The notes: a model not told the origin generated them from the letters alone. 64,000 bases of DNA from an uncultured Actinomycetes bacterium (GCA_963816425.1 CAWFKP010000005.1:23693-87692); one strand, 5' to 3'. Numbered from the stretch's first letter, positions 13,204-44,806 are shown. Made by a program: numbers and translations.

Positions 13204-13207
13204 TGGC

Positions 13208-23438: not shown

Positions 23439-23483
23439 GGCGTATGGCGAGGGGGCGTATGGCGAAGGGGCGCATGGGCGGGG
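23439..23483. repeat. 15-bp tandem repeat x3 (GGCGTATGGCGAGGG / GGCGTATGGCGAAGG / GGCGCATGGGCGGGG) in a divergent intergenic region
   Basis: Read directly from the sequence at 23439-23483. Confidence 0.8.
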
Positions 23484-25081: not shown

Positions 25082-26650
25082 ATGGGTGAAGGAAAGGAGC
25101 CTGAAGCGTCCGAACCCGAAGGGTCCGAGGAAGGCGACGCACCGGTAGCCAACGACGCTGAACACCAGTCGCTCGTTCTGGGCATGGCGCGGCAGGGCAG
25201 TCTCAACTTCGCAGGGGCGATCTTCAATCAGTCTTTACGCTTCGGTCTCACCTTCCTCGTCGCCTCACTGCTGGGGGCTACCACCGCGGGGTTGTACTTT
25301 CAGTCATATGCGTTTCTGGCGTTCCTCAGCGTGGTCGCCTCAGGCGCATTCACGGATACCCTCACGCGCTTCGTCGCCGTTCACAGAGCAGATGGCGATG
25401 ACGCAGGGCTCCGAGGGACGATTCGATTAGGTCTCGTCACAACGACAGCAGTGGCGACGGTGATCGGTCTCGCCCTGTACTGGTGGGCGCCTGCCCTGGC
25501 TATGGGCCCGTTCCACGATCCGCGCCTCAGCCCATTCCTCCGTTTCGTTGCCGTGGCGCTCCCGGCGACCGCGTATACGGACGCCGCCCTGGCCGCCACG
25601 CAGGGTTTCAAGACCATGAAGCCGTATGCATCCATCAATCTCTTCTTCGAGCCTGCTTGCCGCATCGTTCTGACCGTCGTCTTGCTCTTGGCCGGCTGGG
25701 GCCTGGTCGGACTTATGGTCGCGCTGCTGATAACCAATTGCGTTTCGGCGGTGCTTGCCTCGATCGCGCTGAGGAGGTTGATGGGCCGGCCCCATGTGTC
25801 GCCTCGGTACGAAGTCAAAGAGATCTTCTCTTTCTCGGTTCCTAGCTGGCTATCCAATCTTGCAAGCAACGGACTGCTGTGGGCCGACATCATCATCTTG
25901 AGCATCTACGCTTCGTCAGCCGAGGTGGCGATCTACCAGGTCGCAACCCGCCTCACGTTGCTCGCAACCGTGTTCATCCAACCCGTGACCAACTCGTTCG
26001 CCCCGAGGATCGCCGACTTCTGGCGGCGGAAGCGGTTCGACTTGATGAAGAAGACCTTCAAGCTCATCACCAGCTGGGTCGTGCGCCTCTCCCTACCTTC
26101 CTTCGTCGTCCTTCTGATCTTTCCCCGACAGCTCCTGGGGCTCTTTGGCCCTGAGTACGAGGCCGGCGTCACGGTCACGAGGATCATGACGGTCGCTTGG
26201 CTCCTCAACGCTGCCAGCGGGCCCTGCGGCTACGTGCTGACGATGTCAGGCCGGCCGAAAGTGCAGATGGGTAATTACAGTGCGGCCCTCATCCTCAACG
26301 TCGCCTTGAACATCGTGCTGATCCCGCGCTTCGGGATCACGGGAGCGGCGACAGCGTGGGCGACCACGATCCTCATGTTGACGGTCACACGCGTCCTACA
26401 GGTATGGGTCTTCGCGAGGATGCTTCCGTTCAGTCGAGATCTGTTGAAGGGGTTCTACGCGGCCATCGTGGCTGGTGTCGGCGGCCTTGCGACCAGCGAA
26501 CTCATCGATGGCGAGTTGCGTTCGCTCTTCGTCGGCGTCGTCGTGGTTGGCATCACCTACGTGTTCTGCATCCGGGTCCTAGGCCTCGAGGAAGATGATC
26601 GTCTGGTACTCGATGCTCTGCGCCAACGGTTCCGGATCGGTCACGCTTGA
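25082..26650 (+). CDS. MOP-superfamily polysaccharide flippase (Wzx-like), copy 2
   Basis: 522-aa polytopic membrane ORF with an acidic N-terminal tail. It is clearly paralogous to 20498..22024 along its whole length. Confidence 0.75.
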   Translation: MGEGKEPEASEPEGSEEGDAPVANDAEHQSLVLGMARQGSLNFAGAIFNQSLRFGLTFLVASLLGATTAGLYFQSYAFLAFLSVVASGAFTDTLTRFVAVHRADGDDAGLRGTIRLGLVTTTAVATVIGLALYWWAPALAMGPFHDPRLSPFLRFVAVALPATAYTDAALAATQGFKTMKPYASINLFFEPACRIVLTVVLLLAGWGLVGLMVALLITNCVSAVLASIALRRLMGRPHVSPRYEVKEIFSFSVPSWLSNLASNGLLWADIIILSIYASSAEVAIYQVATRLTLLATVFIQPVTNSFAPRIADFWRRKRFDLMKKTFKLITSWVVRLSLPSFVVLLIFPRQLLGLFGPEYEAGVTVTRIMTVAWLLNAASGPCGYVLTMSGRPKVQMGNYSAALILNVALNIVLIPRFGITGAATAWATTILMLTVTRVLQVWVFARMLPFSRDLLKGFYAAIVAGVGGLATSELIDGELRSLFVGVVVVGITYVFCIRVLGLEEDDRLVLDALRQRFRIGHA

Positions 26651-28719: not shown

Positions 28720-29949
28720 ATGGATGTACCTGGATCTTCGTTCGGGTTCGTGACGTCGCTGTTCATGCCGGCGGAGGCTGGGAAGTTGGGTGTCGTGATG
28801 CACCCGGCGGGCGACTGGACGTTCGCGCCGGAGCTCTTCCCCTCTGATATTGATGCCGCCGCATGGGGTCGTCCGCCGATCGGCTCCGACACGCCGCTGC
28901 CCCAGGCCGTGCGTCAAGCGATCCAGCGAGAGCTCGCGCTCCGGAGCTTCGCCAGCAAGGTTCCAAGCGGATACCGGCGCCGAGCCATCCATCGGTTGCC
29001 CCCGCCCACCTACGGTATCGGGGGAAGCAGGTCCGCGATCCGCGGCCTCGTATTGAGTGGCGCGATCGTCTCGGTCGAACGGGACACCGGGACGCCGATC
29101 GTCCTCGACGGCGTCGCGGAGGCGGCGAGCTTGGTTCGTACGGAGAGGCTGCGGCTCGGTGCAGGGGTGGCTGCCTCGCTGCTTGCCTGGCGCTCCGACG
29201 GCAGGAAGACGTTCGTCCGACTCGGCCCGGCGGGCGGCCGAGACGATCCGGCGCGCATCGCGCGTTGCCTCGACATGCTTCGCGCTTCCGGCGTGGATCA
29301 CGTCCCGAGGGTCCTGGCCCGCGGTCGCGTCGGTGCGACCTCATGGACTGTCGAATCGTTACTCCCGGGCCGAAGGCCCCGTGCACTCACGTCGGATCTC
29401 GTCGTATCGGTCGCTCGTAGTCTGGCACGGCTCCCGAGGCAGGAAGGTCCACCCGCTGCGCATCGCGACGATCTCGAGATCATCGCCGGCGCATTCCCGG
29501 ATCGTCGGCCGGTACTCGACGCGATCGGCCGCCGGATCGACCACGCCGTCGGGTCGATGCCCGGCGTGCTGCGCCACGGCGACCTCTGGGCGGGCAACCT
29601 CCTGATCCAGCATCGATCGCTCTGCGGCATCGTGGACTGGGATACGTGGCACCCATCGGGCGTCCCCGCTGCCGACCTGTTGCACATGATCGTCACCGAC
29701 CTGTCGATGAAGACTCGGCGGCCGCGAGGCACGCTATGGGCCGCCCGCCCATGGACGGCGCCGATGTTCAAAACGGTCCTTCTCAGGAACTGGCCCACGA
29801 GCGTCCCCGTCCCTGATGAACGCTCGTTCGAGGCGATCGCGCATGCGGGATGGGCTGCCCAGGTCGCCGCGAACCTGACACATTCCCCGGAGCTCTCGAG
29901 GAGGCAGCGCTGGATCTCGGGCAACATCGACCCGATCACGGGCCGATGA
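28720..29949 (+). CDS. aminoglycoside/choline-kinase-fold (APH-like) phosphotransferase
   Basis: 409-aa ORF preceded by GAAGGTGAGG. It has a Brenner-type catalytic loop (VLRHGDLWAGNLLI) and the metal-binding GIVDWDTW. Confidence 0.65.
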   Translation: MDVPGSSFGFVTSLFMPAEAGKLGVVMHPAGDWTFAPELFPSDIDAAAWGRPPIGSDTPLPQAVRQAIQRELALRSFASKVPSGYRRRAIHRLPPPTYGIGGSRSAIRGLVLSGAIVSVERDTGTPIVLDGVAEAASLVRTERLRLGAGVAASLLAWRSDGRKTFVRLGPAGGRDDPARIARCLDMLRASGVDHVPRVLARGRVGATSWTVESLLPGRRPRALTSDLVVSVARSLARLPRQEGPPAAHRDDLEIIAGAFPDRRPVLDAIGRRIDHAVGSMPGVLRHGDLWAGNLLIQHRSLCGIVDWDTWHPSGVPAADLLHMIVTDLSMKTRRPRGTLWAARPWTAPMFKTVLLRNWPTSVPVPDERSFEAIAHAGWAAQVAANLTHSPELSRRQRWISGNIDPITGR

Positions 29950-29959: not shown

Positions 29960-31240
29960 TCATGATGGTCCCGGCGACTCCCTGACGGAACGCGACCGGC
30001 GCCGACACACCTCCCAGATCACGCGCGTGACACTGCGGCGAAGATCTTGGAGATCGGCGGTTGCATCGACGACGATCGTGCCTGGGCGGCGCTCGACGAG
30101 CCCTAGGTATTGTCGCCTTCGGCGTGCGAGGACGTCGACGGGTTGTTCGTGCTTGCGCTGGACGAGCACCTCGGCCGGGGCGTCCAACACGATCATGAGA
30201 TCCGGCTCCGGAACGCTATGCCCGATCAGCCAACGAACCGCGCGTCGACCGGCCGGCGCATGTCGCGTCGCCGGAAGCGTGGCGTCAATCGGATAGCGAT
30301 CGAAGATCACCATCGACCCGCTCGCGCTGAGGGATCGGGCTCGCGCGTACCGGCCCCATTGTGCGACGAGCCGAGCCGGTAGTGACGGCGGCCTGTCGCC
30401 TCGCGTCGACGCGAGAGCGTCTCGGTGCATGCCCATATACAAGGTCTCGACGGCGAATGGAAAGGCGCCCCGGAGGGTGGCGGAGAGCGTGGTCTTCCCC
30501 GACCCGTCGGGCCCAACGAGCGCCACCGTGAGTCCGCGCTTGCCGAGCGGCGTCGCGCGGGTCCCGTTCAGCCACCGCGCGGCCGCATGCCTGGACGGCG
30601 AGATCTGGAAGCATGAACGAAGAAGCGGACGCGTCGCCTCGAGTGCTTCCCAATCACCGACGTGGACTCCGCGGAGCAACGTGTCGGCCGTGACGTGGGG
30701 GGATGCCACTCTGTCGACGATGGCGCCAAGCCCATCCGAGGCCACCGCGTGTTCAGCGAGGTCGCGGAGCCGTGCGCGGTGTGCGCGGCTTATCTCCGAC
30801 TTGTCGAGCAGACTATCCAAGAGCAGCATCCAGAACGCCTCGCCGTCCTCGAGAACGGATACATCGTCCGATCGCCGGCGCCGGAGACTCTCGGCACCAT
30901 TCGGCAGCTTCGGACATCGATACGGGCCCCATCGAAGATCGGTCACGACGTGGAGCGTGACCCATGCATCAGTTGTTGCGTCGTACCCGATGAGGGAACC
31001 GTGTGCGGGCTCGGAGCCTCTGATCGGTATGAATCCGTGACGGGCGAAGAGGCGGCGAACCCGTGGCGAGCCGGCGCTTGGGAGCAGCAGATAGATGGCG
31101 TTCGCCGCATCACCGACAGGCCGGTCCCCACCGAGCACGCACCACTCGACGCCCGCCGCATCGAGCGCGTCGAACACGCGTCGGAGTATCGAGGGAAGTG
31201 GCGGGGTCCACGGTGCACCGGTGGCGGGGGGAGCGGTCAT
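29960..31240 (-). CDS. two-domain protein: N-terminal domain of unknown function (weak nucleotidyltransferase-like look) + C-terminal thymidylate-kinase-like P-loop kinase
   Basis: The ATG at 31240 overlaps the upstream GT2 stop (ATGA) and is preceded by AGGAGG. It has Walker A (VALVGPDGSGKTTL), then IFDRYPIDA and LMIVLDAPAEV, as in dTMP-kinase-like NMP kinases. ORF codons upstream of 31240 overlap the GT2 gene. Confidence 0.55.
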   Translation of the reverse strand: MTAPPATGAPWTPPLPSILRRVFDALDAAGVEWCVLGGDRPVGDAANAIYLLLPSAGSPRVRRLFARHGFIPIRGSEPAHGSLIGYDATTDAWVTLHVVTDLRWGPYRCPKLPNGAESLRRRRSDDVSVLEDGEAFWMLLLDSLLDKSEISRAHRARLRDLAEHAVASDGLGAIVDRVASPHVTADTLLRGVHVGDWEALEATRPLLRSCFQISPSRHAAARWLNGTRATPLGKRGLTVALVGPDGSGKTTLSATLRGAFPFAVETLYMGMHRDALASTRGDRPPSLPARLVAQWGRYARARSLSASGSMVIFDRYPIDATLPATRHAPAGRRAVRWLIGHSVPEPDLMIVLDAPAEVLVQRKHEQPVDVLARRRRQYLGLVERRPGTIVVDATADLQDLRRSVTRVIWEVCRRRSRSVRESPGPS

Positions 31241-32199
31241 CGCCTCCTGAATCGTGCGTCGTGGGTGTGAGGCGGGACGTTGCCGACCACGTCGGCGCGC
31301 GATCCGCGACGACGATGCACCTCCCGGAGACCGTCGAGCGCTCCACCGAAATAGGCGGTGTCCCGTTTCGTGACGGTTCGAAGCAATTCGAATCCGAACC
31401 GACCGGTCATCCCCCATGCGAACGCAAGACGATTGAGGACGGGACCCTTGAGGTGCTTCGAGTAGAACCAGAAATTGTTCACCACGTGCATCGCGGATTT
31501 CTCCCGCGTGCCGATCCGGGCAGTTGGCGTCTTCAGGTGCAGGAACCCGGCGTTGGGGATAGCGAGCATCTGGTAGTGCCGGCTGATCCGATACGAAAGG
31601 TCGATATCCTCTTTCAGCGCATAACCAGCGAGACTCTCGTCGAGCAAGAACTCCCGAAGCACGTCCGCACGGAACGCGCACGCGGTGAGCCGGAGCACCT
31701 CGATCTCGACAGGGCGTGTGGGAGCGACGGGCAACGTGTAGTACCCGGATCGGAGCATCCGGCCCGGGGATCGCCGCGTGTGCCTCGATTGCATGAAGAT
31801 GCACCGGAAGGCGCGTGCCGGCCACGGCCGGAGGATGTCGTTCCGCATCGTTCCCTGCACGGCAGCGAGGCGTGGCCCTCCCGTCTGGAATGCCTGCACG
31901 ATGTCGCCGATGAACCGAGGCTCGAGAACGACATCGTCGTCCACGATGATGATCATGTCGCCGCTCGCCGCCCGTATCCCCACGTTCAGCTGGGCCGTCC
32001 GTCCCGGTGCGGCCCTCAGTGGAGCGACGCGGATCCCTTTCGACAGCAGCTCTTCTCGTATTGGAGTGGGAGCGGGTGGGGAACTCGCGTCCACGATCAC
32101 GACCTCATCGGGGAGGACACGTTGGTCGATCACACTCGCGAGACAACGTCGAAGCTCATCGGGACGGTCGAGCGTCGTGATCAGTAACGTTGGGCGCAT
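31237..32199 (-). CDS. family 2 glycosyltransferase
   Basis: 320-aa ORF. LLITTLDRPDELRRCLASV...VVIVDAS...IIIVDDDVV is the GT-A DxD pattern. Confidence 0.8.
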   Translation of the reverse strand: MRPTLLITTLDRPDELRRCLASVIDQRVLPDEVVIVDASSPPAPTPIREELLSKGIRVAPLRAAPGRTAQLNVGIRAASGDMIIIVDDDVVLEPRFIGDIVQAFQTGGPRLAAVQGTMRNDILRPWPARAFRCIFMQSRHTRRSPGRMLRSGYYTLPVAPTRPVEIEVLRLTACAFRADVLREFLLDESLAGYALKEDIDLSYRISRHYQMLAIPNAGFLHLKTPTARIGTREKSAMHVVNNFWFYSKHLKGPVLNRLAFAWGMTGRFGFELLRTVTKRDTAYFGGALDGLREVHRRRGSRADVVGNVPPHTHDARFRRR

Positions 32200-32257
32200 T
32201 CATGCACTCGTGGGCCGGAGTCCGCCTTGACCACTTGCCTGCACGAGACCCCCGTCA

Positions 32258-33424
32258 TCACTCCGATTCCGACTGTGTTCGGGATTGGCCGATCTGTCGC
32301 CGAGGATGCGATGAGACCTCATCATAGAGGCCGGCGAATGAGTCGGTCATCGCGCGTGCCGAGAAGCGTCGGTTCGCCGCATCCCGGGCGCGTGTTCCCG
32401 CGGCGACGAGGTCCTCATCGAGAGCAGCGCGGATCGCAGCGGCGAGCGTGGCCGGGCGGGCGGCAGGCACGAGCCATCCCGTGTCGCCGTCGACCACCAC
32501 CTCGGCGTTCCCGCCCACCGTCGTCGCGACCACGGCTCGACCCGCGGCCATCGCCTCGATGATCGCGGTCGGGAGGCCCTCGAATCTCGAGGGGAGGACG
32601 AAGAGAGACGCTCGAGCAAGCAGACTCGCGATATCCCCCCGCTCCCCGAGGAGGATCACGCTTCCTTCGAGCCCGGCTTCGCGGATCCGTTCCTCGAGGA
32701 CCCCCCGCGACGGTCCCTCTCCGGCGATCACGAAGCGAACGTCCTGGCCGAAGGGTCCACACGCCACTGCATCGATCAGATCGTCCAACCCCTTCTGGGG
32801 ATGAAGGCGAGCGACGGTCAGGCAGACGCGCGTATCGGAAGAGATCCCGATCGAGGAGAGATCCGCGGGCGTTGCGTGCGCGTACCGGCCCAGATCGACG
32901 CCGTCGTACACCAGGCGGACACCCGCTCGGGCGACGCCGAAAGCGGTGGAGACGTTGTCCGCCACCGCATCCGAGTTCGCGACGAACATCCGCACCGCTC
33001 GCGAGGTTGCCTTGGCCACCGTCATGGTCAGCCTCCCGACGACGGGACCAAGCCGAACAAGGCAATCCTGCGGATAGAGGTTGACCACGTTGTTGATCAC
33101 CGGCACGCCGGAGAACCGTCCGATCCGACCAAGCAGGTCGGCTCGGATGGTCCTGGTGTGTATCACGTCAGGCCGGATGCGTTGCAGGAGAGAGGCGAAC
33201 GCTCGGATCCCTCGAGGGTCGGTCATGGAGGTCATGCCCAGATTCACGATGCGGACGCCGGACCCCGACGTCTCGCGGATCAACGCGGAATCGGTAGGAC
33301 CGTGCGTGGCGACGAGGATCGGTTCGACGCCGGAGGTAGGCAGGTTCCGTGCCAGCGTGGCCATCACGCTGCCCGGCCCGCTCCCATCGAGGACGGAGAC
33401 GAGCAGGACGGCACGCACACTCAC
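32258..33424 (-). CDS. family 4 (GT-B, group 1) glycosyltransferase
   Basis: 388-aa ORF whose GTG start overlaps the upstream stop (GTGA). LPSRFEGLPTAIIEAMAAGRAVVAT is the E(x7)E motif region. Confidence 0.8.
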   Translation of the reverse strand: MSVRAVLLVSVLDGSGPGSVMATLARNLPTSGVEPILVATHGPTDSALIRETSGSGVRIVNLGMTSMTDPRGIRAFASLLQRIRPDVIHTRTIRADLLGRIGRFSGVPVINNVVNLYPQDCLVRLGPVVGRLTMTVAKATSRAVRMFVANSDAVADNVSTAFGVARAGVRLVYDGVDLGRYAHATPADLSSIGISSDTRVCLTVARLHPQKGLDDLIDAVACGPFGQDVRFVIAGEGPSRGVLEERIREAGLEGSVILLGERGDIASLLARASLFVLPSRFEGLPTAIIEAMAAGRAVVATTVGGNAEVVVDGDTGWLVPAARPATLAAAIRAALDEDLVAAGTRARDAANRRFSARAMTDSFAGLYDEVSSHPRRQIGQSRTQSESE

Positions 33425-34824
33425 GTCACAGCCACCGTGGGCCTGTTCGTCTCCGGAGTCACGGTGACAGAGCGGGGAGCTTTCCGGGAGCGATCGGGCA
33501 TCGTTTCCCAGCAGACATACGCCACCCCCGCGATCAACCAGAAGTAGAACTGGTACGCGCCCTTGCCAAGGTTGTTGCTCGCGACGCTCACCGCCGTGTA
33601 GCCGAGCGCCAAACCCAGGAACGCCCGGGGGAGGTCTCCCCGTGCGGCTCCGATACGCACGCCCATCCGATCGAGAGACAAGATGAGAAGGACGAACGCG
33701 ACGAACCCGATGATCCCCCCTTCGACCAATGCACGAAGGAAGTCATTGTGCGCAGCGACGTTGACGGACGCGAGCGTGGACCCCCATCCTCTCCCTAAGA
33801 TCGGCTGCGTCTTCCACAGTCCCAGATCCCGGTTCCATAACGCCAGCCTGCCCAGGAGTGAGTTCCCAGTGTTATTGCCCTGCATCGGATGGAGGAAGTC
33901 AGTTAGACGCACGAGAAGTCGGGGCACGGCCGCAACGACAACGAGGGCACTGGCGGCCGCGGCCGCGAGAACCCAACGGTGACGCCATCCGACCACAACG
34001 ACGAGGATCGCCATGGCACCCCACGCGTTCCGACTCAACGTGAGAGCCGTGGAGGCGAACGCTGCAAGGCCGATCACGTCCACGAGCAGGCGCATCCGGC
34101 CGGTCAACTCCCATCTGAGTCCCCAGGCCGCGCCGGTCACTGCGACGAGGTAGAAGCCGTACGTGTTCGGATGATCGAACGTGGACTCTATCCGCAAGCC
34201 GCCGTGGAGAGCATCAGTGTGCCCGATCGACTGGCTGAGTTGCCAGAAACCGATCAGGATCGGCACGCACGCGCTCGCGACGACCGCACCAAGGAACGCG
34301 CGGAGCACCTTTGGCTCGGGACGAGCCGTCACGATGACGAGGAACGCGGCGTACGGGGCAGCGAACTTCACGAGATCGCGGGCGCCAATTGGGGGCGCCG
34401 ATGAGTACAGAAGGCTTCCCGTCGCGATCGTCAACAGCAGCACGGCCGGCCAGAACGTCGGGGCCCTCCACACGGGCACTCCTGTTCGGATCCGATCCAG
34501 CAGCCACAGCAGCAAGCCCCCGAGGATCGCGATCGTCAAGAGGTCGGGCGGGCTCAGTCCCACCCCGAACGGACTGAGCAGGACATGTGACTGGAGACCC
34601 TCCAAGCTCGCACGGACGACGGCGAGGACGAGGAGAACCCGAACCGGATCGAGCGCCACCAGCAACATGGCCACGCCGCCGAACAGCGCGGCCATCGCCA
34701 ACGAGAGGTCCACCTTCCGCGTCAGCGAGGCCGTCACTGCGGCGGCGACGGCCGCGAACCCGAGGATCACGAGATCGAGGCCGAGGCGCTTGAACCGGCC
34801 TGTTGTGGCGGCTCTACTCGACAT
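33421..34824 (-). CDS. O-antigen ligase / Wzy-like polymerase family membrane protein
   Basis: 467-aa ORF with 10 or more hydrophobic helices. A loop with ...SRNAWGAMAILVV... and AHNDFLRALVEGGIIG is typical of the Wzy_C/O-antigen-ligase family. Its start overlaps the upstream gene by 11 nt. Confidence 0.7.
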   Translation of the reverse strand: MSSRAATTGRFKRLGLDLVILGFAAVAAAVTASLTRKVDLSLAMAALFGGVAMLLVALDPVRVLLVLAVVRASLEGLQSHVLLSPFGVGLSPPDLLTIAILGGLLLWLLDRIRTGVPVWRAPTFWPAVLLLTIATGSLLYSSAPPIGARDLVKFAAPYAAFLVIVTARPEPKVLRAFLGAVVASACVPILIGFWQLSQSIGHTDALHGGLRIESTFDHPNTYGFYLVAVTGAAWGLRWELTGRMRLLVDVIGLAAFASTALTLSRNAWGAMAILVVVVGWRHRWVLAAAAASALVVVAAVPRLLVRLTDFLHPMQGNNTGNSLLGRLALWNRDLGLWKTQPILGRGWGSTLASVNVAAHNDFLRALVEGGIIGFVAFVLLILSLDRMGVRIGAARGDLPRAFLGLALGYTAVSVASNNLGKGAYQFYFWLIAGVAYVCWETMPDRSRKAPRSVTVTPETNRPTVAVT

Positions 34825-36352
34825 ATCCCAGGGACCTCAGGTGCTCCAGCACGGCTGCTTCCTCTTCGTCGGAATAGGCGGATGACGACCGCACGGCTTC
34901 TGTCGGCGTACTCGTGTGGAGGCCGGCGAGGGGCGTCGAGGGGGAGATGAGACTTCTGCCGTCGAGCGTCGGGACCTCCAGTCCGAGGAGCGCGAGGATC
35001 GTGGGAGTGATGTCCGGGGCCTCCCCGTCGACCCTTTCGGTGGCACCGGCACCCCGGATGGCGACCACCCCTTCGGTTCGGTGCGTGCCCCACGCGACGT
35101 CTTCCCTGGAGACCCACGGCGTGGCCGCGTGGAGTCCATCGTGCAGTTCGACGGATCCGTCGACCATGTCACACAACAGGTCCGGCGCGCCCATCGCTAC
35201 CGATGATGCCTCTCCCCGTGAGTCGACCGCTCGGACGAGCGGCTCTCCCTCCGGGTCTCGCAGAGCGAGGAGGAGGTCGGTAACGTTGGTCCGCAGCTGT
35301 TCGTCGGACGGATCACCGAGCCACACCCCCGACTGGTAGCTCGGGCCGGTCCAGGCCCGGCGCACGGCACCGTCGCTCGGCCGGGCGGAAAGTCTCTTCT
35401 TGGCCCAGGTGCGTGCGCCAGAGGGCAGGAACGTCGATGCTCGAGAGCGTCCCAGGATCATCGTCGACCGGCGGACACGTCCGACTCGAGGAGCATCGAG
35501 GATGCCTTCGCGGGCGAGAACCAGATCGAAGAACACCTCTGCTCGAAGTGGCCCGAACCCGTGGTCGGAACAGGTCACCACGGCGGTCGACGGCGGAAGC
35601 GCCGCGAGGAGCCCGCCGATCGCCTCGTCGAGGGCGCGCAGGGGACCGGCAGCGGCTCGACGGAGCCGCCGCGACTTGCGGCTCTCGTACCGCTGGTCCC
35701 CTGGAACCAGGTCCTTCCACCATGGGTGCCCCAGGCGATCTGGCAAGACGAAGACGACCGCGAAGAGATCCCAGGGCTGCTCGCGCGCAAGGCGCGCCAC
35801 GGCGCGTCCGCGCGCCTCCGTCATGCGCTGGAGCAGCTCGAGGGCTCGAGCAGGCTCTCGAGCCCCCTCTCGGACCGGCACATCGACGACATAATCGCTC
35901 GGGATGAGCTCGTCGACGAGCCCCGGCGGTGACGTGAACGAAGCCCCCGGCGGCACCGGCATCCCCGACACCAGTACCCCGTCGATCGGAGTGGGCGGAT
36001 GTGTCATCGGAACGTTCACGACGATCGAGCGACCTCCGGATGCACCCACGAAGTCCCAGACCCGGGGCGTCAGCACGCGATCACCCGTCAACGGTCGACC
36101 CGCCCGATCCGTGAAGCCAAATATGCCGTGGCGATCCGGGCGCATCCCCGTCGTGATGCTCGTCCAGCCTGGTGCCGTGTACGGAGGCAGCGTGGACGCG
36201 AGCACACCGGTGGCGGATTCCCTCAGCAGGGAAAGCAGGTTCGGCATCGTCTCCTTCACGATCGGCGCCTCGAGGAAGGCGGGGCCGAGGCCGTCCAACC
36301 CGAGCAGGAGCACGCGACTGGAGGCGCGGGCACTCACGTCGCTACTCGACAT
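34814..36352 (-). CDS. cytoplasmic alkaline-phosphatase-superfamily protein, NPP (type I phosphodiesterase/nucleotide pyrophosphatase)-like, paralogue 1
   Basis: ATG at 36352. It has LLLGLDGLGP, YTAPGWTSITTGMRPDRHGIFGF, PDRLGHPWW, CSDHGFGP and GTHR. The C-terminal tail is EEEAAVLEHLRSLGYVE. There is no signal peptide. Confidence 0.7.
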   Translation of the reverse strand: MSSSDVSARASSRVLLLGLDGLGPAFLEAPIVKETMPNLLSLLRESATGVLASTLPPYTAPGWTSITTGMRPDRHGIFGFTDRAGRPLTGDRVLTPRVWDFVGASGGRSIVVNVPMTHPPTPIDGVLVSGMPVPPGASFTSPPGLVDELIPSDYVVDVPVREGAREPARALELLQRMTEARGRAVARLAREQPWDLFAVVFVLPDRLGHPWWKDLVPGDQRYESRKSRRLRRAAAGPLRALDEAIGGLLAALPPSTAVVTCSDHGFGPLRAEVFFDLVLAREGILDAPRVGRVRRSTMILGRSRASTFLPSGARTWAKKRLSARPSDGAVRRAWTGPSYQSGVWLGDPSDEQLRTNVTDLLLALRDPEGEPLVRAVDSRGEASSVAMGAPDLLCDMVDGSVELHDGLHAATPWVSREDVAWGTHRTEGVVAIRGAGATERVDGEAPDITPTILALLGLEVPTLDGRSLISPSTPLAGLHTSTPTEAVRSSSAYSDEEEAAVLEHLRSLGYVE

Positions 36353-38029
36353 ATCCGAGCCCCTCGAGGCGCTCTCGGATCTCGGCCTCCTCCTCCTCGG
36401 TGAAGCCACTGGCCTCTTCCTCGTCGATGATGCCGCTTCCCCCTTGTCGCGTCGGGACCGACGCAACGAGGTCGGATGAGAACGCGTCCGTCAGGATCTT
36501 GCCGTCCACGTCGGAGGGGATCGGCGCCTGTCGTAAGAAGAGCACCGTCGGCGCGATGTCCGCGATGCGGGCCCCTTCGATCCTGCCCGGACGGACCCCG
36601 GGTCCTCGGAGCCCGACGATGCCCAGTCGATCGTGCCCTCCGTTGAGAAGGTGGTCGAACGGATCATCCGGAAGGTGCTGCTTCGAGAGGCTGAACGAGC
36701 GACCGTCGGGATACCGCAGGTCGAGGCAACTCCCCTCGCCGGCCCACTCGATGACGAGATCAGGGGAGCGTTCAACGAACGGGCCCGAATACGCTTCCTC
36801 CCGGCGCAGAACGCGCTTGACGAGAGGCTGCCCGGTCGTGACGCACACAGCTGACGTCAGGGAGTCGATGATCTCCTGCCTGAGGGCCTCGTAGTCTTCC
36901 GGTGCGACGATCCCTTCCGGCTGTCGACCGCGGACGTTGAGCCAGATCTCAGGGCGCTTCCCATCGGTGTAGGCCTTCGTCCGCGACCAGTCCAGTCGAG
37001 CGAAGGACATCATCACCTCGACCTTGCGCCGGAGCGCCGGGAACCGACGTGCGAGTTTGTGCCTTGTCTCGGGCGCGAGTCGCTTGTCGAGCTCTCGATA
37101 GACGCGGGTTGCAGTCTTGTACAGGAACGAGCTCGACCCGCTCTGACCGACGTTCGTCCTGTACGTCAACAGGCCGAGATGCTCGAGCCAGCTCGGAAGC
37201 GCGCGAGCAAGACCGTCGTCGTACCGAGCTCCGTGATCGGAGACGAGCATGATCACCGCGTCCTTCCCCGCGGCGGCCATCAACCGTCCGAGCGCTCGGT
37301 CGAGGTGCTCATAGGTATCGCGGATCGCGTCCACCTGCCGCGGCGGATCCGTCGGGGGATGGATCCTGCATGTGCCTCCAGAAGAAGTGCTGAACGACGT
37401 CGGACTCGGTGAACACCACCATGAAGGCGTCCCATGCGTGCGTCGTCATGAGATGCTCTGCCACCCGCGCGCGCTTGTCGATCGATTGATGCAGGCGATC
37501 GAGACCCTGATCGACCTGGTCGGCGATCAGGAAACGTGCGAGTGCCGGGTGGATGAAGTACTCGCCACCGGCAGCCTTCACCACCTCGTGGCGGAGCTCG
37601 GGCGGATAGGTGAATCGAGGGTCGTTCGTTCCCGGGCTGTCGAGCCCGGCAGACGAAGACGCCGTTCACGGTCTCGGCGGGGTAGCTGACCGGGACGTTC
37701 ACGATCCCGACACGCTGTCCCTCCTCCGACAGGATCCGCCAGAACGCCTTCCCCTGTCGGAACGAGCCGTTGACGAATCGATACTCGTAACTCTCGGGTT
37801 TGTCCTCGGTGAACCAAAAGATCCCATGCTTGCCGGGGTTGAGCCCGGTCACCATCGTCGACCAGGCAGGGCCACTGTGCCGATTGGGTACCGATTCGAG
37901 CGATCCCCATGCGCCCTCGGAGATGAATGAGGCGATGTTCGGGAGTCGATCTTCCGCGACCCACTTCTCGACGAGAGCAGGTGTCGCGGCATCGAGTCCG
38001 ACGATCAGAACCTTCCTCGGCTCGGTCAT
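36342..38029 (-). CDS. NPP-like alkaline-phosphatase-superfamily protein, paralogue 2; frame broken twice (about 37646-37652 and the G5 run at 37354-37358)
   Basis: Three ORF pieces (37280..38218, 37309..37584, 36342..37334) are collinear with the paralogues: LIVGLDAATP, HSGPAWSTMVTGLNPGKHGIFWF, ESDVVQHFFW, VSDHGARY. The tail is EEEEAEIRERLEGLGYVE. The ATG at 38029 overlaps the upstream stop (ATGA). Confidence 0.65.
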
Positions 38030-39665
38030 AGGTAGCCCAGATCTTCGAGGTGAGCCGTCATCTGCTCCTCTTCCTCTCGCGTGTATGCCTCGTCGCTCCG
38101 TTGATCGACGGATTCCGCTCCGCGGCGGATGGGGTACTCCGAGACGAATCGATCTTCGAACGCGTCGGTCAGAACCCGGCCTTCCATCTGCTGCGGGATC
38201 TCGAGGCCGAGGGCCCATAGGAGCGTTGCGGGAACGTCCAGGATGGTCGCCCCCCCCAAGTCGTGCCCCTCGCGTATGCCCGGGCCGTTCATCACGAGGA
38301 TGCCGTCCGGCCTGTGGGTTGCGGCAGACCTTCCCGCTCTCGTTCCAGCACGAGACAGGGAGCGCCTCGCAGCCGAATGGCCGACCTCGTATCGTTCGTC
38401 GAGTTCCAACACGACATCGGGCGCCGAGTCCAAGTACTGGCCCGAGTAGATCTCCTCACGCCGATGCGCCGCCCGCACGACGTGGCTCCCGGTTTCGGGG
38501 TCAACCAGCTCGGCGGCCGCGGCGATGATGTCGCCGCGCACGGCCTCGAACTCAGACGGCGGAACGCTCCCCGAGGGCTCTCGGCCGGACACGTTCACGT
38601 TGAAGCCCGATATGTGGTGGTCGACGGTGACGGCGTACGCACGCGAGCTTTCCCACTCGATCGTTGCCGCATGATCTCGGATCCTTCCCGCCGAATCACG
38701 CACGCCTTTCGGTGCATGCCGCCACAACCAATACTTCTTCGGCGCGATGTTCGCTCCCCATTCGAGGGCGTTCGAGGCCAGCTTTCGAAGTGGCCGGTTT
38801 CCAACGGTGTTGAGCAGCCCCAGCTCGACCAACCACGCGTCCGGGTTGAACCTGAGGGCCGAGCGTCGGCCCGTCCCGTGGTCCGACAGGATCACGACGA
38901 GCGCAGGTTCGGGTACGGCATCGAGGATCGCGCCAAGTGACGCATCGACAAGACCGTAGAAATGCTCAACGAGCGTTCGCCGTCGACGCTTCGGGGTTCG
39001 TATCCAGGCGACTCGGGGTCCGAGTACCGCCAGAACTTGTGTGCGATCCAATCTGTGACGTTGTTGACGTAGCAGAAGAAGTCGAACTCGCGTTCCCGAA
39101 GCGTCTGGGTCAGCCACTCCGTGGAACGTTCGAGGTAGTGCTCGAAATTCTCGACCTGCGCATCGACGCCGGCCACCATGCTGCGCACAGGACTGAGCGT
39201 GAAGAGGGATGGCATCTCTTGCCCCACGTGATCTGGAGACGAGAAGTTCGTCCGAGGGTCGGGCGTTGGGAAGCCTGACACCATCAACCCGTTGACGGGC
39301 CACGGCGGATATGTCATCGGCACGCGGAACGCGATCACGTCCTTACCTCCGAGCGATGCATGATCGAAGATCGTGTTCCCCCGGTACGCCCAGGAGCCAA
39401 CGAGCTCGGATCCCAACACGCCGCCCGACACCGTTCGGAAGTTGAAGACCCCGTGTTGGCCTGGGTTCGTCCCGGTCATGAAGGAGACCCAGGCCGGCGC
39501 CGACAACGGCGGGACGGTGGAACGAAGCGTGGAGCGTGTCCCGGTTTCCATGAGTTTCGCGAGGGTCGGAAGCTTGCCGCTCTTCACGAGCGGATCGATG
39601 ACATCGAACGTGGCGCCATCGAGGCCGATACACACCACCTTGGCGAACGGCGCGGCCGTGGGCAT
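38026..39665 (-). CDS. NPP-like alkaline-phosphatase-superfamily protein, paralogue 3; frame broken once near 38965-38995
   Basis: ORFs 38892..39665 (VCIGLDGATF, LSAPAWVSFMTGTNPGQHGVFNF, VTDWIAHKFW) and 38026..39303 (LSDHGTGR ... EEEEQMTAHLEDLGYL) join at ...GYEPRSVDGER/TLVEHFYG. Confidence 0.65.
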
Positions 39666-39677
39666 CAGGAATTCGCC

Positions 39678-42284
39678 CTAGAGGTACCCGAGGGCGCTCA
39701 GCCGCTCTTCCACTTCGGCTGCTTCCTCGTCCGAGTAGCCCACCTGCTCGATCTCCGGCCCTCCTGTGTGAGTCGCGGAACGGACCACCGGTCGAGACGC
39801 GTGGGGTTCAGCCAATGCCTCGCCCAGCACGCGACCATCCACGTCGTCCGGTACCGGCACCTCGAGCAGATGCAGGATCGTCGGAGCCAGGTCCTGGAGG
39901 GCCGCCCCTTCGATCCGGGCGCCGGACGCGAATGACGGCCCTCGGAAGATGAGGACCCCCTGGGGCCGGTGCGCTCCCGAGAGACCGTGCATGAACCCCT
40001 TCGAGTACCGGCTCGAGACCGCGTGACCGAGCTTCCCGTCGTATCGCAATCCCGTCACCGGGCGGTCGTACTTCCAATCGATCTGCAGATCGGGAGCCTC
40101 GGCGGTGTGGGGGCCCGAGTAGATCTCGTCGGGCGTATGAACGGCTTCCACGACCCGTTCGCCCGTCTCCGGATCGACGAGCGAGGCGAGGACCTCTCGC
40201 AACTCGGTCACGAGCCCTCCGTACGCTTCTGGCGCCACGGTTCCGTTCAGATCACGCCCCTCGAGATTGACCCATATGCAGCTCCGGGTGTTGTCGCTGA
40301 ACGCCCGCGTATTCGCCCAGTCGATGCCGCCGAAACGGATCTGGAAACCGAACCGTCGGTACAGGCCGGGGAGCCGACGCTTCACGAATCCCTTCGCCCG
40401 CGGACCCAATCGTTTCGCGAGTTTGAACGCCCGCCACCGGCTGCTGGCGCCAGACGCATCCGCCCGATGGAGGTAGCCGAGCTGCTGCAGGATGCCACTG
40501 AGGTATTCCGCAGCGGGTTGGCGCCAGCCCATGCCGTGGTCAGACATCACGACCAGGTCACAGTCGGGACCGGCCGTTTCGAGGAGGCGAGCCAGGGTTT
40601 GATCCGCGTACCTGTAGACGTCGCGAAGCGGCTCTTGGCTTTCAGCTTCGTGATCCCAGACGTGATGGGCCACCTGGTCGGTCGCCTTGATCATGTACAT
40701 CGCCACGTCCCACGGCTCCGTCTCAAGGAGGCGCGTCATGGCGTTCACGCGCGACTCCTCGGCGGTGAGCGATGCCTCAACCACTCGCTCGACGCGTCCG
40801 GCGTTCGCGTGGTGAGCCACGGCGGCATGCAAGATGTAGGGACCACACTCGTCTTCGAGTCGGTCGATCAGTCCTTCTGGGTGACTGAACGCACTGCTCT
40901 TGATCGAGGGCGCGTCGAACCCGGCGAGCATCACGCCGTTCACCTGTTCAGCCGGATATGTGAGCGGCACGTTCACGACGACCACACGTCGGCCGGCATC
41001 CGAAAGGAGTCTCCAGATGCTGACCGCGTCTCGGTCCGCCGCCGTAACGAACTTCACCTCCGCGGGGCCGCCCTCGCCCTGTTCCGCGAACCAGAAGACG
41101 CCATGCTTTCCGGGGTTCTTGCCGGTCATGAAGGTCGTCCACGCTGGAGCCGTGTTCATATTCGGAACGGAGTCGAGGTAGCCCCACGCGCCTTCCCGGA
41201 GCACCTTCGAAAATGTGGGCAGCGTGCCGTCCTTCGCCCACGGCAGCATCAGGTCGAAGGTCGCGCCATCGAGTCCCAGGACGAGTAGACGAGCCATCGA
41301 TCCCTCATTCTCCCGCCGAGCCTGGTCGACCCCAGTGAGCTGACAACGTCTGGTGGTTCGTCCGTTTCCGTTGGACCGATGGCAGAGACTGACGACCCAT
41401 CGATCACTGCGCGCTCGCCGATATGATCGTCGCTCGATCAGGAGGATGAGGAAGACGCCGACCAGCAGGCCGGCGAGCACCGCGAGACCGATCGTCGCGA
41501 CCAACCCGACGGGGGCGGACCGCTTGCCGAGGGGCGGCGGCGAGATGACTGCTGAAGCGGCGATCCGCTGCTGGAGCGATTCATACGCCGTTTGCATCAT
41601 CCCGGGATAGGCGCTGCTCTTGCTCCTCGCAAGGTCAAGCGACACAGCATCCTGTCGGCGTTGGGTGCGCAGCTCCCCGAGCTTCGTCTGTAGTGCGAGG
41701 ACGCCGTCGGTTGTTCCCGACTGCCGAAGCCGAGCGATCTTCCGGCTCAGTGCTCTCTCTCTTTGCTGGAGACTGACGATGCGCGACGAGAGTGTCGACA
41801 TGGTGAGATCAAGCCGCGCCAAAGCCGGAGTGACGTTCGCAGCCAGGCTCCGCACCATCGTCTCGGCCAGGTCGTTCGAACGGCTGATTAGTGCTTGCGC
41901 CGCAACGGAAACGGCTCGCTGGGCGACTGTTGGCGAGCTCCCAAGCCCGGTCACAAGCCAGGTATCTTGGTCACGCAGCGGGACCGCAGTGATCGATCGC
42001 AGCCCAGCTGCTTGATCGCCGAGCGAGCCTCGGACGTCTTGTGCGAGGCTCGACGACGCGTACGCGGCGAGCTCCAGGGAGACCCTCGATACCCCATTGC
42101 CCCCCATCGAGATGGGGTCGGAGGCCGGGATCAGCACCTGGGCAGAGCTCTCGTATTGCGGCGGTACGGACAGAGCGAAGGGGAGGGCAGCGAGGACCGA
42201 GATCACCACGACGAGGGCCAGGACCAACCGACGCTTCCTCACGGTGCCCAGGATCCCCAGCCGACCCTCGTCTGCCACTGTCAT
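39678..42284 (-). CDS. Wzz/PCP-type polysaccharide co-polymerase half (TM1, coiled-coil loop, Pro-rich motif, TM2) in frame with NPP-like paralogue 4
   Basis: The ATG at 42284 overlaps the upstream GT2 stop (ATGA). PCP features are RKRRLVLALVVVISVLAALPF..PPQYESSAQVLI and SPPPLGKRSAPVGLVATIGLAVLAGLLVGVFLILLI. A 45-codon Arg-rich linker follows, then an internal ATG at 41297 (after GAGGGA) opens LVLGLDGATF, NTAPAWTTFMTGKNPGKHGVFWF, ATDQVAHHVW and MSDHGMGW, with the tail EEAAEVEERLSALGYL. Confidence 0.6.
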   Translation of the reverse strand: MTVADEGRLGILGTVRKRRLVLALVVVISVLAALPFALSVPPQYESSAQVLIPASDPISMGGNGVSRVSLELAAYASSSLAQDVRGSLGDQAAGLRSITAVPLRDQDTWLVTGLGSSPTVAQRAVSVAAQALISRSNDLAETMVRSLAANVTPALARLDLTMSTLSSRIVSLQQRERALSRKIARLRQSGTTDGVLALQTKLGELRTQRRQDAVSLDLARSKSSAYPGMMQTAYESLQQRIAASAVISPPPLGKRSAPVGLVATIGLAVLAGLLVGVFLILLIERRSYRRARSDRWVVSLCHRSNGNGRTTRRCQLTGVDQARRENEGSMARLLVLGLDGATFDLMLPWAKDGTLPTFSKVLREGAWGYLDSVPNMNTAPAWTTFMTGKNPGKHGVFWFAEQGEGGPAEVKFVTAADRDAVSIWRLLSDAGRRVVVVNVPLTYPAEQVNGVMLAGFDAPSIKSSAFSHPEGLIDRLEDECGPYILHAAVAHHANAGRVERVVEASLTAEESRVNAMTRLLETEPWDVAMYMIKATDQVAHHVWDHEAESQEPLRDVYRYADQTLARLLETAGPDCDLVVMSDHGMGWRQPAAEYLSGILQQLGYLHRADASGASSRWRAFKLAKRLGPRAKGFVKRRLPGLYRRFGFQIRFGGIDWANTRAFSDNTRSCIWVNLEGRDLNGTVAPEAYGGLVTELREVLASLVDPETGERVVEAVHTPDEIYSGPHTAEAPDLQIDWKYDRPVTGLRYDGKLGHAVSSRYSKGFMHGLSGAHRPQGVLIFRGPSFASGARIEGAALQDLAPTILHLLEVPVPDDVDGRVLGEALAEPHASRPVVRSATHTGGPEIEQVGYSDEEAAEVEERLSALGYL

Positions 42285-43240
42285 GCCCGAACCTCCATCC
42301 TTGACGCCTGCCATCTTCCTGCGGTCACGGAGGCCAGTTTGAGGCCGCCGAGAAGGACGCCCTTCGCTCGCTCTACGACCGACCCGCGATCCGTCGCGGA
42401 GACCCCCGCCGCTGCGGACATGCCCTCGTGAACCAGTGATACTCCAGCGTTCCGGAGTTCGTCAAAGATACCGAGACTCTCGTAGGTGGCACCTATCTCC
42501 CAATAGCGAGAAACGAGCTGCCGAATCCCCATCTGGTGCGCGTGATGAACGAGGGCTTCGGGCACGTACGCGATCCGGTGACCCCGGTCCAGGAGTCGCT
42601 TCGCCACGGCGACGTCTTCGAAGATCCGGATCTCGTTGGGGAAACGAACGGCTCTGAGAACGTCGGTCAGGAACGCAGACGTGACGTCGGAGAAGTGGAA
42701 GGTTCTTAAACCCAACTCTCCGATGCGCTCCTTCGTCTTGATCGCTGCCTCCTCGGGATAGAGATATGTGAACGTCGCGTCGCGCTCCATATCTGGTGAG
42801 GGCGACAGCTGTCTCCCGTACGCGGCGTCAGCGCGCCCATCGACGAGCGGGCGGACGAGAGACTCGAGCCATCCCTCCGTCGCGGGCTGGGCATCCTGAG
42901 AAAGGTACGCAACGATTGGCGTCGTGGTTGTGTCCAAAGCCCGGTTCCTCGTTCGACCGTGGCCGAAGGCGCCGGGCGGGATGGCTTCCCATTCATCCGC
43001 GACACCGCGGATAACGCGATTCCACTTCGCTCTCGGATCGGTGCTGGAATCGATCACCCGCAACACCACGCGCCCGACGTACCTTTGGGAGCGTACGAGA
43101 TCGACCGTTGTCGCCTCGTGGCGGCCTGGGTTGTGGATCAAGAGGATGACGGATGCATCGGGCCATGGCGCCCGCATTGGGCCCTGCGGATCACTCTCCG
43201 GTAGCAACGTAGGCTCACGCTCCTGTGGATGGAGGACCAT
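42281..43240 (-). CDS. family 2-type glycosyltransferase (rhamnosyltransferase-like GT-A)
   Basis: 319-aa ORF. It has ASVILLIHNPG..., LSQDAQP (DxD-like position), FSDVTSAF and HRIAYVPEALVHHAH, typical of WbbL-like GT2 enzymes. Confidence 0.6.
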   Translation of the reverse strand: MVLHPQEREPTLLPESDPQGPMRAPWPDASVILLIHNPGRHEATTVDLVRSQRYVGRVVLRVIDSSTDPRAKWNRVIRGVADEWEAIPPGAFGHGRTRNRALDTTTTPIVAYLSQDAQPATEGWLESLVRPLVDGRADAAYGRQLSPSPDMERDATFTYLYPEEAAIKTKERIGELGLRTFHFSDVTSAFLTDVLRAVRFPNEIRIFEDVAVAKRLLDRGHRIAYVPEALVHHAHQMGIRQLVSRYWEIGATYESLGIFDELRNAGVSLVHEGMSAAAGVSATDRGSVVERAKGVLLGGLKLASVTAGRWQASRMEVRA

Positions 43241-43454
43241 CCGTACACCCTACCGTGTAGCCCGAACGGGGTCACCTCAAACACCTAACGCAGTAGGCCT
43301 AAGCCTAGAGCCCTAGGTCTAACGGCGGTCGCGGCAAGCCCTACCACTGGTGAACCACTGCGAAGCTCGAGGCCCGGGCATTGTTCCCCCTGGGCAACGC
43401 GACCTTTCGGACAAGCTGCGGTTCTCGAAGGGCGTCCGACCGACTGAGGAAGAC

Positions 43455-44285
43455 CTAGGAGTAGAAGGTAACGCCTTTCAGCAAGGCCACGAGGAGGGAA
43501 GCCTTCAGCTTGCTTGCCGGCGTTCCAGCGTCTGTCCACCACCCCTTCAGAACGTCATACGTCATCGAGCCTTCTCCGATGTAGATGTTGTTCAGGTCAG
43601 TGACCTCGAGCTCTCCTCTCGCCGAAGGAGTCAGCGTCTCAGCGAAGCCGAACACGCGGTCATCGAAGAGGTAGCAGCCGCTCACGACGAAGTTCGACCT
43701 CGGGTGTTCCGGCTTCTCCTCGATGTGGACGATGCGATCATCGAGGACCTCCGCCACGCCGAAGCGCTGTGCGTCCTCATGGGACACCTCCTTGAGGAGG
43801 ATCTTCGCGCCGCCTCCCTGACCTTGGAAGGCCTCAACGTAGGGAGTGAGATCTTCTTGGAAGATGTTGTCACCGAGGATCGTAATGATGTCCGCGCCCT
43901 CCACGAAGCCCTTCGCCTTCAACAGCGCGTCGGCGATGCCTCGCTCACCTTGCTGATAGGCGTATCGCAGCCGCACGCCGAACGATCCACCATCACCAAG
44001 GAGATCCTTGAACTGCGCGATGTCATCACCCGTCACAACCACCACTTCTTCGATGCCGGCGCGGACGAGGGCACGGATGGGATAGAAGATCATCGGCTCG
44101 TCATAGACATCGAGTAGGTGCTTGTTGACGATCTTCGTCACTGGGTGGAATCGCGTCCCGAGGCCGCCAGCGAGAACGACCCCCTTCACGGGATCGGCCT
44201 TCTCGCCGGGCACGCAAACGATTGTTCGTTGAGGATCGGGATATTGCGGTGTCGCATCATCATCATGCGCCTCCCCTCGGGCCAC
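43455..44285 (-). CDS. sugar-1-phosphate nucleotidyltransferase (short RmlA/glucose-1-P thymidylyltransferase-like)
   Basis: It has KGVVLAGGLGTRFHPVTKIVNKHLL (G-x-G-T-R-x motif) and GIADALLKAKGF...ILGDNIF. The start is uncertain: ATG at 44285 or GTG at 44189. Confidence 0.75.
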   Translation of the reverse strand: MARGEAHDDDATPQYPDPQRTIVCVPGEKADPVKGVVLAGGLGTRFHPVTKIVNKHLLDVYDEPMIFYPIRALVRAGIEEVVVVTGDDIAQFKDLLGDGGSFGVRLRYAYQQGERGIADALLKAKGFVEGADIITILGDNIFQEDLTPYVEAFQGQGGGAKILLKEVSHEDAQRFGVAEVLDDRIVHIEEKPEHPRSNFVVSGCYLFDDRVFGFAETLTPSARGELEVTDLNNIYIGEGSMTYDVLKGWWTDAGTPASKLKASLLVALLKGVTFYS

Positions 44286-44730: not shown

Positions 44731-44806
44731 GCCGGAGTAGCTCAGTCGGCAGAGTGCCTCCATGGTAAGGAGGAGGTCAGGGGTTCGATTCCCCTCTCCG
44801 GCTCCA
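44731..44806 (+). tRNA. tRNA-Thr (anticodon GGT), CCA encoded
   Basis: I folded the cloverleaf by hand: acceptor GCCGGAG/CTCCGGC, D arm TAGCTCAGTCGGCAGAGT, anticodon stem CCTCC/GGAGG with loop ATGGTAA, T arm AGGGGTTCGATTCCCCT. Confidence 0.9.

Follow-up and report, generated by a model that had tools for sequence, protein, structure and literature searches.

A 64,000-nt stretch of DNA from an uncultured Actinomycetes bacterium (GCA_963816425.1 CAWFKP010000005.1:23693-87692), hereafter the window, carries a polysaccharide locus in which four genes for proteins resembling nucleotide pyrophosphatases/phosphodiesterases (NPPs) lie in a row on the minus strand, at 34814-41297. Positions refer to the whole stretch, and the copies are numbered 1 to 4, copy 4 being the first in transcription order. 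L-numbers denote comparison contigs or loci, and P-numbers homologous proteins. An earlier note on this DNA had given the array as 34814-42284; the four genes are there, but that span also takes in the gene of a polysaccharide co-polymerase (PCP). The array does lie between the PCP gene and the Wzy-like gene, and every motif string, tail and overlap quoted in the note is present in the sequence.

39678-41297, minus strand: NPP-like paralogue 4, 539 aa, Thr nucleophile, start MARLLVLGLDG, end ...LSALGYL
38026-39665, minus strand: NPP-like paralogue 3, about 546 aa, Ser nucleophile, 1-nt deletion near 38977 in the window
36342-38029, minus strand: NPP-like paralogue 2, 561 aa, Ser nucleophile, 1-nt insertions near 37652 and 37353
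34814-36352, minus strand: NPP-like paralogue 1, 512 aa, Thr nucleophile, the most divergent copy, intact

Copies 3 and 2 meet at an ATGA (38026-38029), and the next two junctions (36342-36352 and 34814-34824) consist of the identical 11-mer ATGTCGAGTAG; because this 11-mer stands at both, copy 1 and Wzy both start with MSS. The downstream start codons fall inside the conserved tail codons of the upstream gene, TAT-GTC-GAG-TAG in the case of copy 1 and Wzy, and CTATGA in the case of copy 2. Overlaps of 11 nt and 4 nt recur, by length, in L002 and L086. The ATGA and the 11-nt overlaps bear out the translational coupling that had been proposed for these genes.

Family, active site and fold

All four copies match PF01663 with E-values from 7e-29 (paralogue 1) to 3e-36, paralogue 4 at 1.3e-31, and with 102-126 bits against a gathering score of 23. 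Each contains the motifs GLDG or GLDA, [TS][AG]P[AG]W, TG..P..HG[IV]F, D..xH..W and SDHG, and a final His. The AlphaFold2 model of copy 4 (predicted local distance difference test score, pLDDT, 90.8; predicted TM-score, pTM, 0.91) has Xac NPP as its top Foldseek match, and SPAP, ENPP5, ENPP6, ENPP7 and PhnA are also retrieved (top PDB entries 2gsn, 7mw8, 5xwk, 5egh and 1ei6; E about 1e-14, 14-16 % identity, probability 1.00, target-normalised TM-score up to 0.69). A single-protein sequence search of the PDB was uninformative, and no solved structure of a family member was found there. A profile of the family does match PDB chains, PhnA at E = 7.5e-10 and Xac NPP at 3e-8, over short stretches only. 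An NCBIfam scan gave no model specific to the family, for which the generic PF01663 is the sole curated model, and none of the four proteins matches PF00884. The four proteins belong to the NPP/PhnA branch of the alkaline-phosphatase superfamily, as the earlier note had proposed from motifs; profile searches led to no unrelated family. Databases label members of the clade "alkaline phosphatase family protein" or "predicted AlkP superfamily phosphohydrolase/phosphomutase".

Conservation was counted in an alignment (A1) of 371 family members with copy 4 as row 1, and the tail ending was counted on the 370 full-length members. The residues D10, T/S49, D207, H211, D253, H254 and H443 are present in all four copies and in their orthologues once the frame breaks described below are repaired, so that the active sites are intact. 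Among the metal ligands, D10 is found in 367 of the 371 members (the other 4 are gaps), and D207, H211, D253, H254 and H443 are each found in all 371. The nucleophile is Ser in 261 members and Thr in 108. Two copies (4 and 1) have Thr and two (3 and 2) have Ser, in agreement with the first description; this split is kept in the orthologues, and it is ordinary, since both residues occur family-wide. Each copy should thus be a two-metal enzyme, and the Ser/Thr nucleophile implies that it should work through a covalent phospho-enzyme intermediate.

The core fold, the six metal ligands and a Thr/Ser nucleophile followed by ..P..TG..P..HG are held in common with the NPPs (Xanthomonas NPP, 2gsn; ENPP1-7; PF01663), but the identity is just 14-16 %. 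The family adds an insertion of about 150 residues, made of basic helices and an alpha/beta cap, and an acidic-LGY tail, and its genomic context is glycan assembly. At the position of the Asn that follows the HGI motif in NPP and PhnA, Phe stands in 356 of the 371 members (96 %); the profile alignment sets the family's "hGifeF" opposite "HGIVHN" of NPP and "HGICGN" of PhnA. We take this Asn to be N111 in Xac NPP numbering, which presumably contacts a phosphoryl oxygen, as in the NPP literature. Paralogue 1 has Arg at the N61 position. Among PDB entries PhnA (3szy, 1ei6), a cytoplasmic enzyme, comes nearest to the family profile by sequence, and its fold is a close match too, but the alignment is limited to the first 100 or so residues. 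PhnA has neither the insertion nor the tail, the PhnA model TIGR02335 scores 22-23 bits on the window proteins against an equivalog cut-off of 407.55, and the window locus has no phosphonate-catabolism neighbours.

The basic part of the insertion follows SDHG. It is modelled as lower-confidence helices and has a mean net charge of +9.2, against -8.5 for the whole proteins, a charge compatible with binding of an anionic membrane or substrate. The cap carries the motif NL.GREP.G. Together with a length of about 540-575 aa and a tail of the form Y[ST].EE..h..RL..LGY, the basic insertion and the cap are the hallmarks of the clade to which the window proteins belong.

The four proteins are predicted to be soluble and cytoplasmic, in line with the earlier note, whereas the NPPs are secreted or ecto-enzymes. 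Inspection of the sequences found no signal peptide, twin-arginine motif or transmembrane helix in any of the four; the maximum Kyte-Doolittle 19-residue mean is at most 1.72 and is located in core beta strands, and the metal-binding Asp lies 10-20 residues from each N-terminus. A cytoplasmic location had been thought unusual for the superfamily. That view is unsupported, since AtaC, a PF01663 c-di-AMP phosphodiesterase of Actinobacteria, is described as cytoplasmic (PMC7132281).

Conservation and spread of the module

The paralogues are 27-37 % identical to one another, and each has a 59-73 % identical orthologue in the Actinomycetota metagenome-assembled genomes (MAGs) L002/L003 and L006. 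The orthologues are 1:1, intact and in the same order in L002/L003, L006 and L086. The gene order in L002/L003 and L006 is PCP, copies 4-3-2-1, Wzy, a GT4 glycosyltransferase, a GT2 glycosyltransferase and a P-loop kinase, to which an APH kinase is added in L006. Comparison of these sequences indicates four anciently diverged, individually conserved paralogues, and an array that is a conserved module rather than a local expansion: copies so dissimilar, with 1:1 orthologues in the same order elsewhere, argue against recent duplication.

The view that a fourfold set of such genes is a non-standard layout does not hold outside the window either. At least two copies occur within 10 kb in 40 of 85 loci. 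An independent four-gene array is found in a Chloroflexota MAG (L020: MurJ, four NPP genes, Wzy, GT4, RmlD), and an Anaerolineae locus (L005) reads NPP, Wzy, GT2, GT4; the layout flippase or PCP, NPP array, Wzy, GT4 thus recurs in L020 and L005. Verrucomicrobiota loci have the order GT2, short NPP, GHMP kinase, long NPP, acetyltransferase, GT4. The family comprises 11,895 clusters at 50 % identity (E <= 1e-30), has at least 585 matches among GTDB species representatives, and extends over Chloroflexota, Verrucomicrobiota, Planctomycetota, Acidobacteriota, Actinomycetota and archaea. A candidate for a carrier that can be grown in culture is Maioricimonas rarisocia, with locus L004 at about 6.39 Mb of CP036275.1.

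The neighbourhood was surveyed with 126 nearest-neighbour open reading frames (ORFs) from 65 loci of other phyla, and the 25 commonest families were listed. GT4 (15), GT2 (12), Polysacc_synt (Wzx-type, 10), LPG_synthase_TM (9), radical SAM (6), MurJ (4) and Wzy_C (4) lead the list. Kinases also stand beside family genes: P-loop and APH kinases in Actinomycetota, and a GHMP kinase between two copies in Verrucomicrobiota. No sulfotransferase family is among the 25 commonest in these 65 loci, and the link to sulfation suggested by the window's own sulfotransferases is unsupported outside this clade. An iterative HMM search for Wzy neighbours had no success, the Wzy proteins being too divergent.

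A role of the NPP protein as a replacement for a bacterial tyrosine kinase (BY-kinase) that partners the PCP was also considered. The domain after Wzz in the window is PF01663, with no Walker A/B P-loop. The idea is unsupported, since an archaeal locus (L011) holds a Wzz/GNVR protein, a P-loop protein and an NPP gene side by side.

Three homologues have unusual architectures. P0378 joins an NPP domain to an S-adenosylmethionine (SAM) methyltransferase and a coiled-coil-like C-terminus; P0236 is a possible head-to-tail NPP-NPP fusion; and P0365 combines a lipoprotein signal with two NPP domains, LGYL and TPR repeats.

Frame breaks in the window

In the window, copy 2 can be followed only by changing between three frames (shifts near 37652 and 37353), and copy 3 only by changing between two (shift near 38977). 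Copy 4 forms the C-terminal 539 residues of an 878-aa ORF (39678-42314) that opens with a Wzz/PCP domain and two transmembrane helices. The tail of the PCP gene is frame-shifted in the window by an added T at 41406 and an added A at 41311; these indels remove the PCP stop, and the PCP therefore reads through into paralogue 4. A PCP-NPP fusion protein was rejected: all 120 homologues of the 878-aa ORF among the matches listed cover the NPP part only (57-64 % of the query), and in L001 (90 % nucleotide identity) and L086 a PCP stop lies 6-10 nt ahead of the NPP ATG.

Contig L086 is 98.3 % identical to window positions 26343-48038 and contains all four genes intact (539, 546, 561 and 512 aa). Over 21.7 kb, 64 single-base indels separate the contig from the window, and the window-specific indels at 38977, 37652 and 37353 coincide exactly with the frameshift sites. 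L086 is itself broken in the ATPase, Wzz, Wzy and GT2 genes, whereas the window has those intact. Other homologues agree with the repaired reading: paralogue 4 is 94 % identical to the stand-alone 539-aa protein P0001, paralogue 3 is intact at 546 aa in L002 as well as in L086, repaired paralogue 2 aligns along 100 % of its length with the intact 561-aa P0121 at 97 % identity, and the orthologues of paralogue 1 have 512 aa in L086 and 497 aa in L002. In repaired frames the ratio of nonsynonymous to synonymous substitution rates (dN/dS) against L086 is 0.15 for copy 3 and 0.13 for copy 2, and copies 4, 3 and 2 together range over 0.11-0.15; the 0.38 of copy 1 comes from very few substitutions. 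Judged from sequence, the copies are under purifying selection.

The frameshifts and the apparent PCP-NPP fusion are most likely 1-nt assembly errors rather than biology, because L086 has four intact genes and a stop after the PCP. It is very unlikely that the array is decaying and that this organism has true pseudogenes in copies 2 and 3. Three frameshifts in these copies and the two PCP-tail indels do crowd into about 4 kb, and no shift sits in a long homopolymer. Yet a nearly identical contig has the four genes whole while being broken in other genes, the density of single-base indels between the contigs is typical of consensus error, and once the frame is repaired, most substitutions in copies 2 and 3 prove to be synonymous. 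Since each sequence breaks different genes, the window is probably the product of error-prone long-read assembly, and false splits or fusions may affect further ORFs in it.

The acidic-LGY tail

In the copy 4 model the protein ends with a C-terminal helix that finishes in LGY, and all four copies carry this tail. The earlier note took it for a common docking tail of the locus. It is instead a hallmark of the family across many phyla: LGY plus 0-3 residues forms the end of 351 of the 370 full-length members (95 %), Y538 is kept in 367 of 371, and no docking evidence was found. Four PF00884 sulfatase-family neighbours end in the same ...RL.ALGY tail, some of them with multi-transmembrane N-terminal anchors, and in the double-NPP protein P0365, which has a lipoprotein signal, the tail (LGYL) stands just ahead of the TPR domain.

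L085:8098-9990, L033:8700-10604, L084:8101-9990, L049:4457-5839: PF00884 sulfatase-family proteins with LGY tail, encoded beside NPP-family genes

A docking tail specific to the locus is ruled out by the family-wide ending and by its presence on sulfatases that are in part membrane-anchored. The tail is, by its distribution, a module common to two branches of the alkaline-phosphatase superfamily. Because it is family-wide and is also found on PF00884 sulfatases and before the TPR domain, it appears to be a structural or interaction module of these enzymes generally.

The surrounding locus

The minus strand from 29960 to 44285 is one tightly packed operon, encoding in order an RmlA-like protein, GT2, PCP, the four PF01663 proteins, Wzy, GT4, GT2 and a P-loop kinase-like protein. 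The order of the genes downstream of Wzy is identical in L002, L006 and L086. The genes other than the array, and the adjoining APH kinase gene, are as follows (family assignments by Pfam).

43455-44285, minus strand: RmlA-like sugar-1-phosphate nucleotidyltransferase (NCBIfam rmlA 229 bits, under the cut-off)
42281-43240, minus strand: GT2, upstream operon gene
41305-42284, minus strand: Wzz-type PCP with two transmembrane helices (PF02706)
33421-34824, minus strand: Wzy/O-antigen-ligase-like membrane protein (PF04932), overlapping paralogue 1 by 11 nt
32258-33424, minus strand: GT4, downstream operon gene
31237-32199, minus strand: GT2, downstream operon gene
about 29960-31210, minus strand: P-loop kinase-like protein, downstream end of the operon
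28720-29949, plus strand: APH-family kinase (PF01636), kept beside the module in L006 and L086

In the window, Wzy and GT4 are encoded separately, with a GTGA overlap at 33421-33424; in L002/L003 they are fused into one 864-aa protein (L002:16446-19040). L002 also has a Bac_transf gene just upstream of GT2-PCP. The P-loop kinase-like protein shows weak AAA_33 and dTMP-kinase similarity and has an N-terminal extension of ~200 residues without a family match; its gene adjoins the module in L002 and L006 too.

Beyond the operon, on the plus strand and nearby, lie the APH kinase gene, two sulfotransferase genes, two Wzx flippase genes and an ORF with weak HprK/FomB-kinase similarity. The Wzx-type flippases (20498-22024 and 25082-26650) are each about 50 % identical to the sole Wzx of L002. 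The sulfotransferases are encoded at 19424-20488 and 26661-28337, the latter with weak NoeE similarity. Pfam recognises nothing in two long ORFs inside the polysaccharide locus, 22084-23310 (minus) and 23395-24984 (plus). By NCBIfam the second weakly resembles HprK-related kinase B and FomB phosphonate-monophosphate kinase, and is possibly a third kinase of the locus. The locus is bounded by a tRNA-Thr gene (44731-44806). Its G+C content (16000-44300) is 0.61-0.68, against about 0.68-0.72 upstream (1-16000) and 0.66-0.70 downstream, and the low G+C and tRNA-Thr border are consistent with an exchangeable island.

Proposed function and alternatives

A working analogy for the reaction comes from another branch of the superfamily. 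EptA/MCR-1, LtaS, OpgB, BcsG and GacH are PF00884 proteins with an N-terminal transmembrane domain that decorate glycans or lipids in the periplasm, and in enzymes of the EptA/LtaS/OpgB type a covalent Thr-phospho-X intermediate moves the phospho-substituent onto the glycan. Those enzymes share the superfamily chemistry with the window proteins, but they are membrane-anchored, face outward and use lipid donors, whereas the window proteins are predicted to be soluble and cytoplasmic and have no PF00884 match. The reading that we tentatively favour, while holding it to be somewhat short of probable, is that the four enzymes carry out phosphoryl transfer on the undecaprenyl-diphosphate-linked repeat unit, their putative substrate, or on its activated precursors, at the inner face of the membrane and before flipping.

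The four proteins are co-translated with the co-polymerase, Wzy and the glycosyltransferases, and in this model would sit at the inner face of the membrane. Here they would perform phospho(di)ester chemistry on the undecaprenyl-diphosphate-linked unit prior to its translocation. By analogy with EptA, LtaS and OpgB, they would transfer or trim phosphate-linked substituents via a covalent phospho-enzyme intermediate. The two or three kinases of the locus may be partners of the NPP-like enzymes in this, and each paralogue may serve its own position or substrate, or the four may form a hetero-oligomer.

The hints of a role on lipid-linked glycan, namely the basic insertion, the co-conserved kinases and one NPP-methyltransferase fusion, are all indirect, and several points weigh against the proposal. 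Hydrolases and transferases are inseparable by sequence in this family. The analysis found no gene for an obvious donor of the CDP-alcohol type, the sole nucleotidyltransferase being RmlA-like, nor was a phosphoglycosyl transferase of the Bac_transf or WecA type found in the window locus (19000-44300). The membrane-binding role that the basic insertion may have is an argument from charge alone, and a hydrophobic-moment scan of the insertion was not distinctive. The hetero-oligomer idea rests on the conserved tandem order and on the possible NPP-NPP fusion P0236, which may be a read-through artefact. Finally, the association with glycan-assembly genes would suit a role in precursor supply equally well. 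A more specific version seems rather unlikely: that the paralogues constitute a cytoplasmic, membrane-associated phosphotransferase machine of the alkaline-phosphatase type that adds phosphodiester-linked substituents to undecaprenyl-diphosphate-linked repeat units before flipping, with the LGY tail serving subunit assembly or partner docking.

The main rival, a precursor-level role, leaves the lipid-linked glycan untouched: the proteins would be sugar-phosphate phosphatases or phosphomutases, or nucleotide-sugar pyrophosphatases, that make or edit the activated sugars on which the glycosyltransferases of the locus draw. Such a role is a lesser possibility that has to be taken seriously. It agrees with the "phosphohydrolase/phosphomutase" of the source annotation and with the cap-like inserted subdomain of the predicted model, since cofactor-independent phosphoglycerate mutase (iPGM) and phosphopentomutase possess such a cap-like domain. 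The same operon encodes an RmlA-like nucleotidyltransferase and kinase-like proteins; the GHMP kinase of Verrucomicrobiota, which stands between two copies, is near a SIS-type sugar isomerase predicted from sequence; and PDB entry 6f30 has UDP-GlcNAc bound to ENPP3. However, four conserved paralogues are many for a precursor pathway, glycosyltransferases, flippases and Wzy, and not sugar-nucleotide enzymes, are the nearest neighbours, no kinase adjoins the four copies of L020, and the basic insertion is left unexplained. A duty as nucleotide phosphodiesterases is improbable. Such enzymes could clear inhibitory by-products, adenosine 3',5'-bisphosphate (PAP) from sulfotransferases and nucleoside diphosphates (NDPs) from glycosyltransferases, or degrade a cyclic-dinucleotide signal that controls the polymer, like AtaC. 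The two sulfotransferases of the window and the nucleotide-hydrolysing NPPs at the top of the structural matches fit this idea, as does AtaC itself, which resembles the window proteins as a PF01663 enzyme of Actinobacteria described as cytoplasmic. By description AtaC is, however, a single stand-alone signalling enzyme and not one of several tandem paralogues in a Wzx/Wzy operon (PMC7132281). Moreover, sulfotransferases are missing from the 25 commonest neighbour families in other phyla, the phosphoryl-contacting Asn of NPP and PhnA is replaced by Phe in nearly all members, the proteins are ~150 residues longer than the 380-430-residue NPP/PhnA chains in the PDB, and the need for four paralogues is hard to explain.

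Extracytoplasmic decorators of the EptA, LtaS or sulfatase type are hardly to be expected here. Membership of the same superfamily, the lipoprotein signal on the distant relative P0365 and the LGY tail shared with membrane-anchored PF00884 neighbours would speak for them; the lack of any export signal, membrane helix or PF00884 match in the four proteins, and a catalytic Asp so close to the N-terminus, speak against. Furthermore, one member is fused to a methyltransferase that depends on cytoplasmic SAM.

No publication was found on this clade or its arrays. One passage on the ebo cluster attributes another PF01663 protein to it (PMC5133447), and no such enzyme is listed in the paper on the Actinoplanes wps-1 sulfated-exopolysaccharide cluster.

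What looked like an oddity of the window is a conserved, testable module, with a pattern kept elsewhere and not unique to this stretch. The family is repeatedly embedded in glycan-assembly loci. Knowing which reaction it catalyses would close a gap that recurs in Wzx/Wzy-type and related pathways of mostly uncultured bacteria, and could bring to light a cytoplasmic way of making phosphate-modified polysaccharides. If the proposed phosphotransferase machine is real, it would be the first inward-facing counterpart of the periplasmic decorators of the EptA/LtaS/OpgB type, and the ~12,000 clusters of the family would point to phosphate-decorated glycans as a class that is widespread in uncultured phyla but has gone unrecognised.

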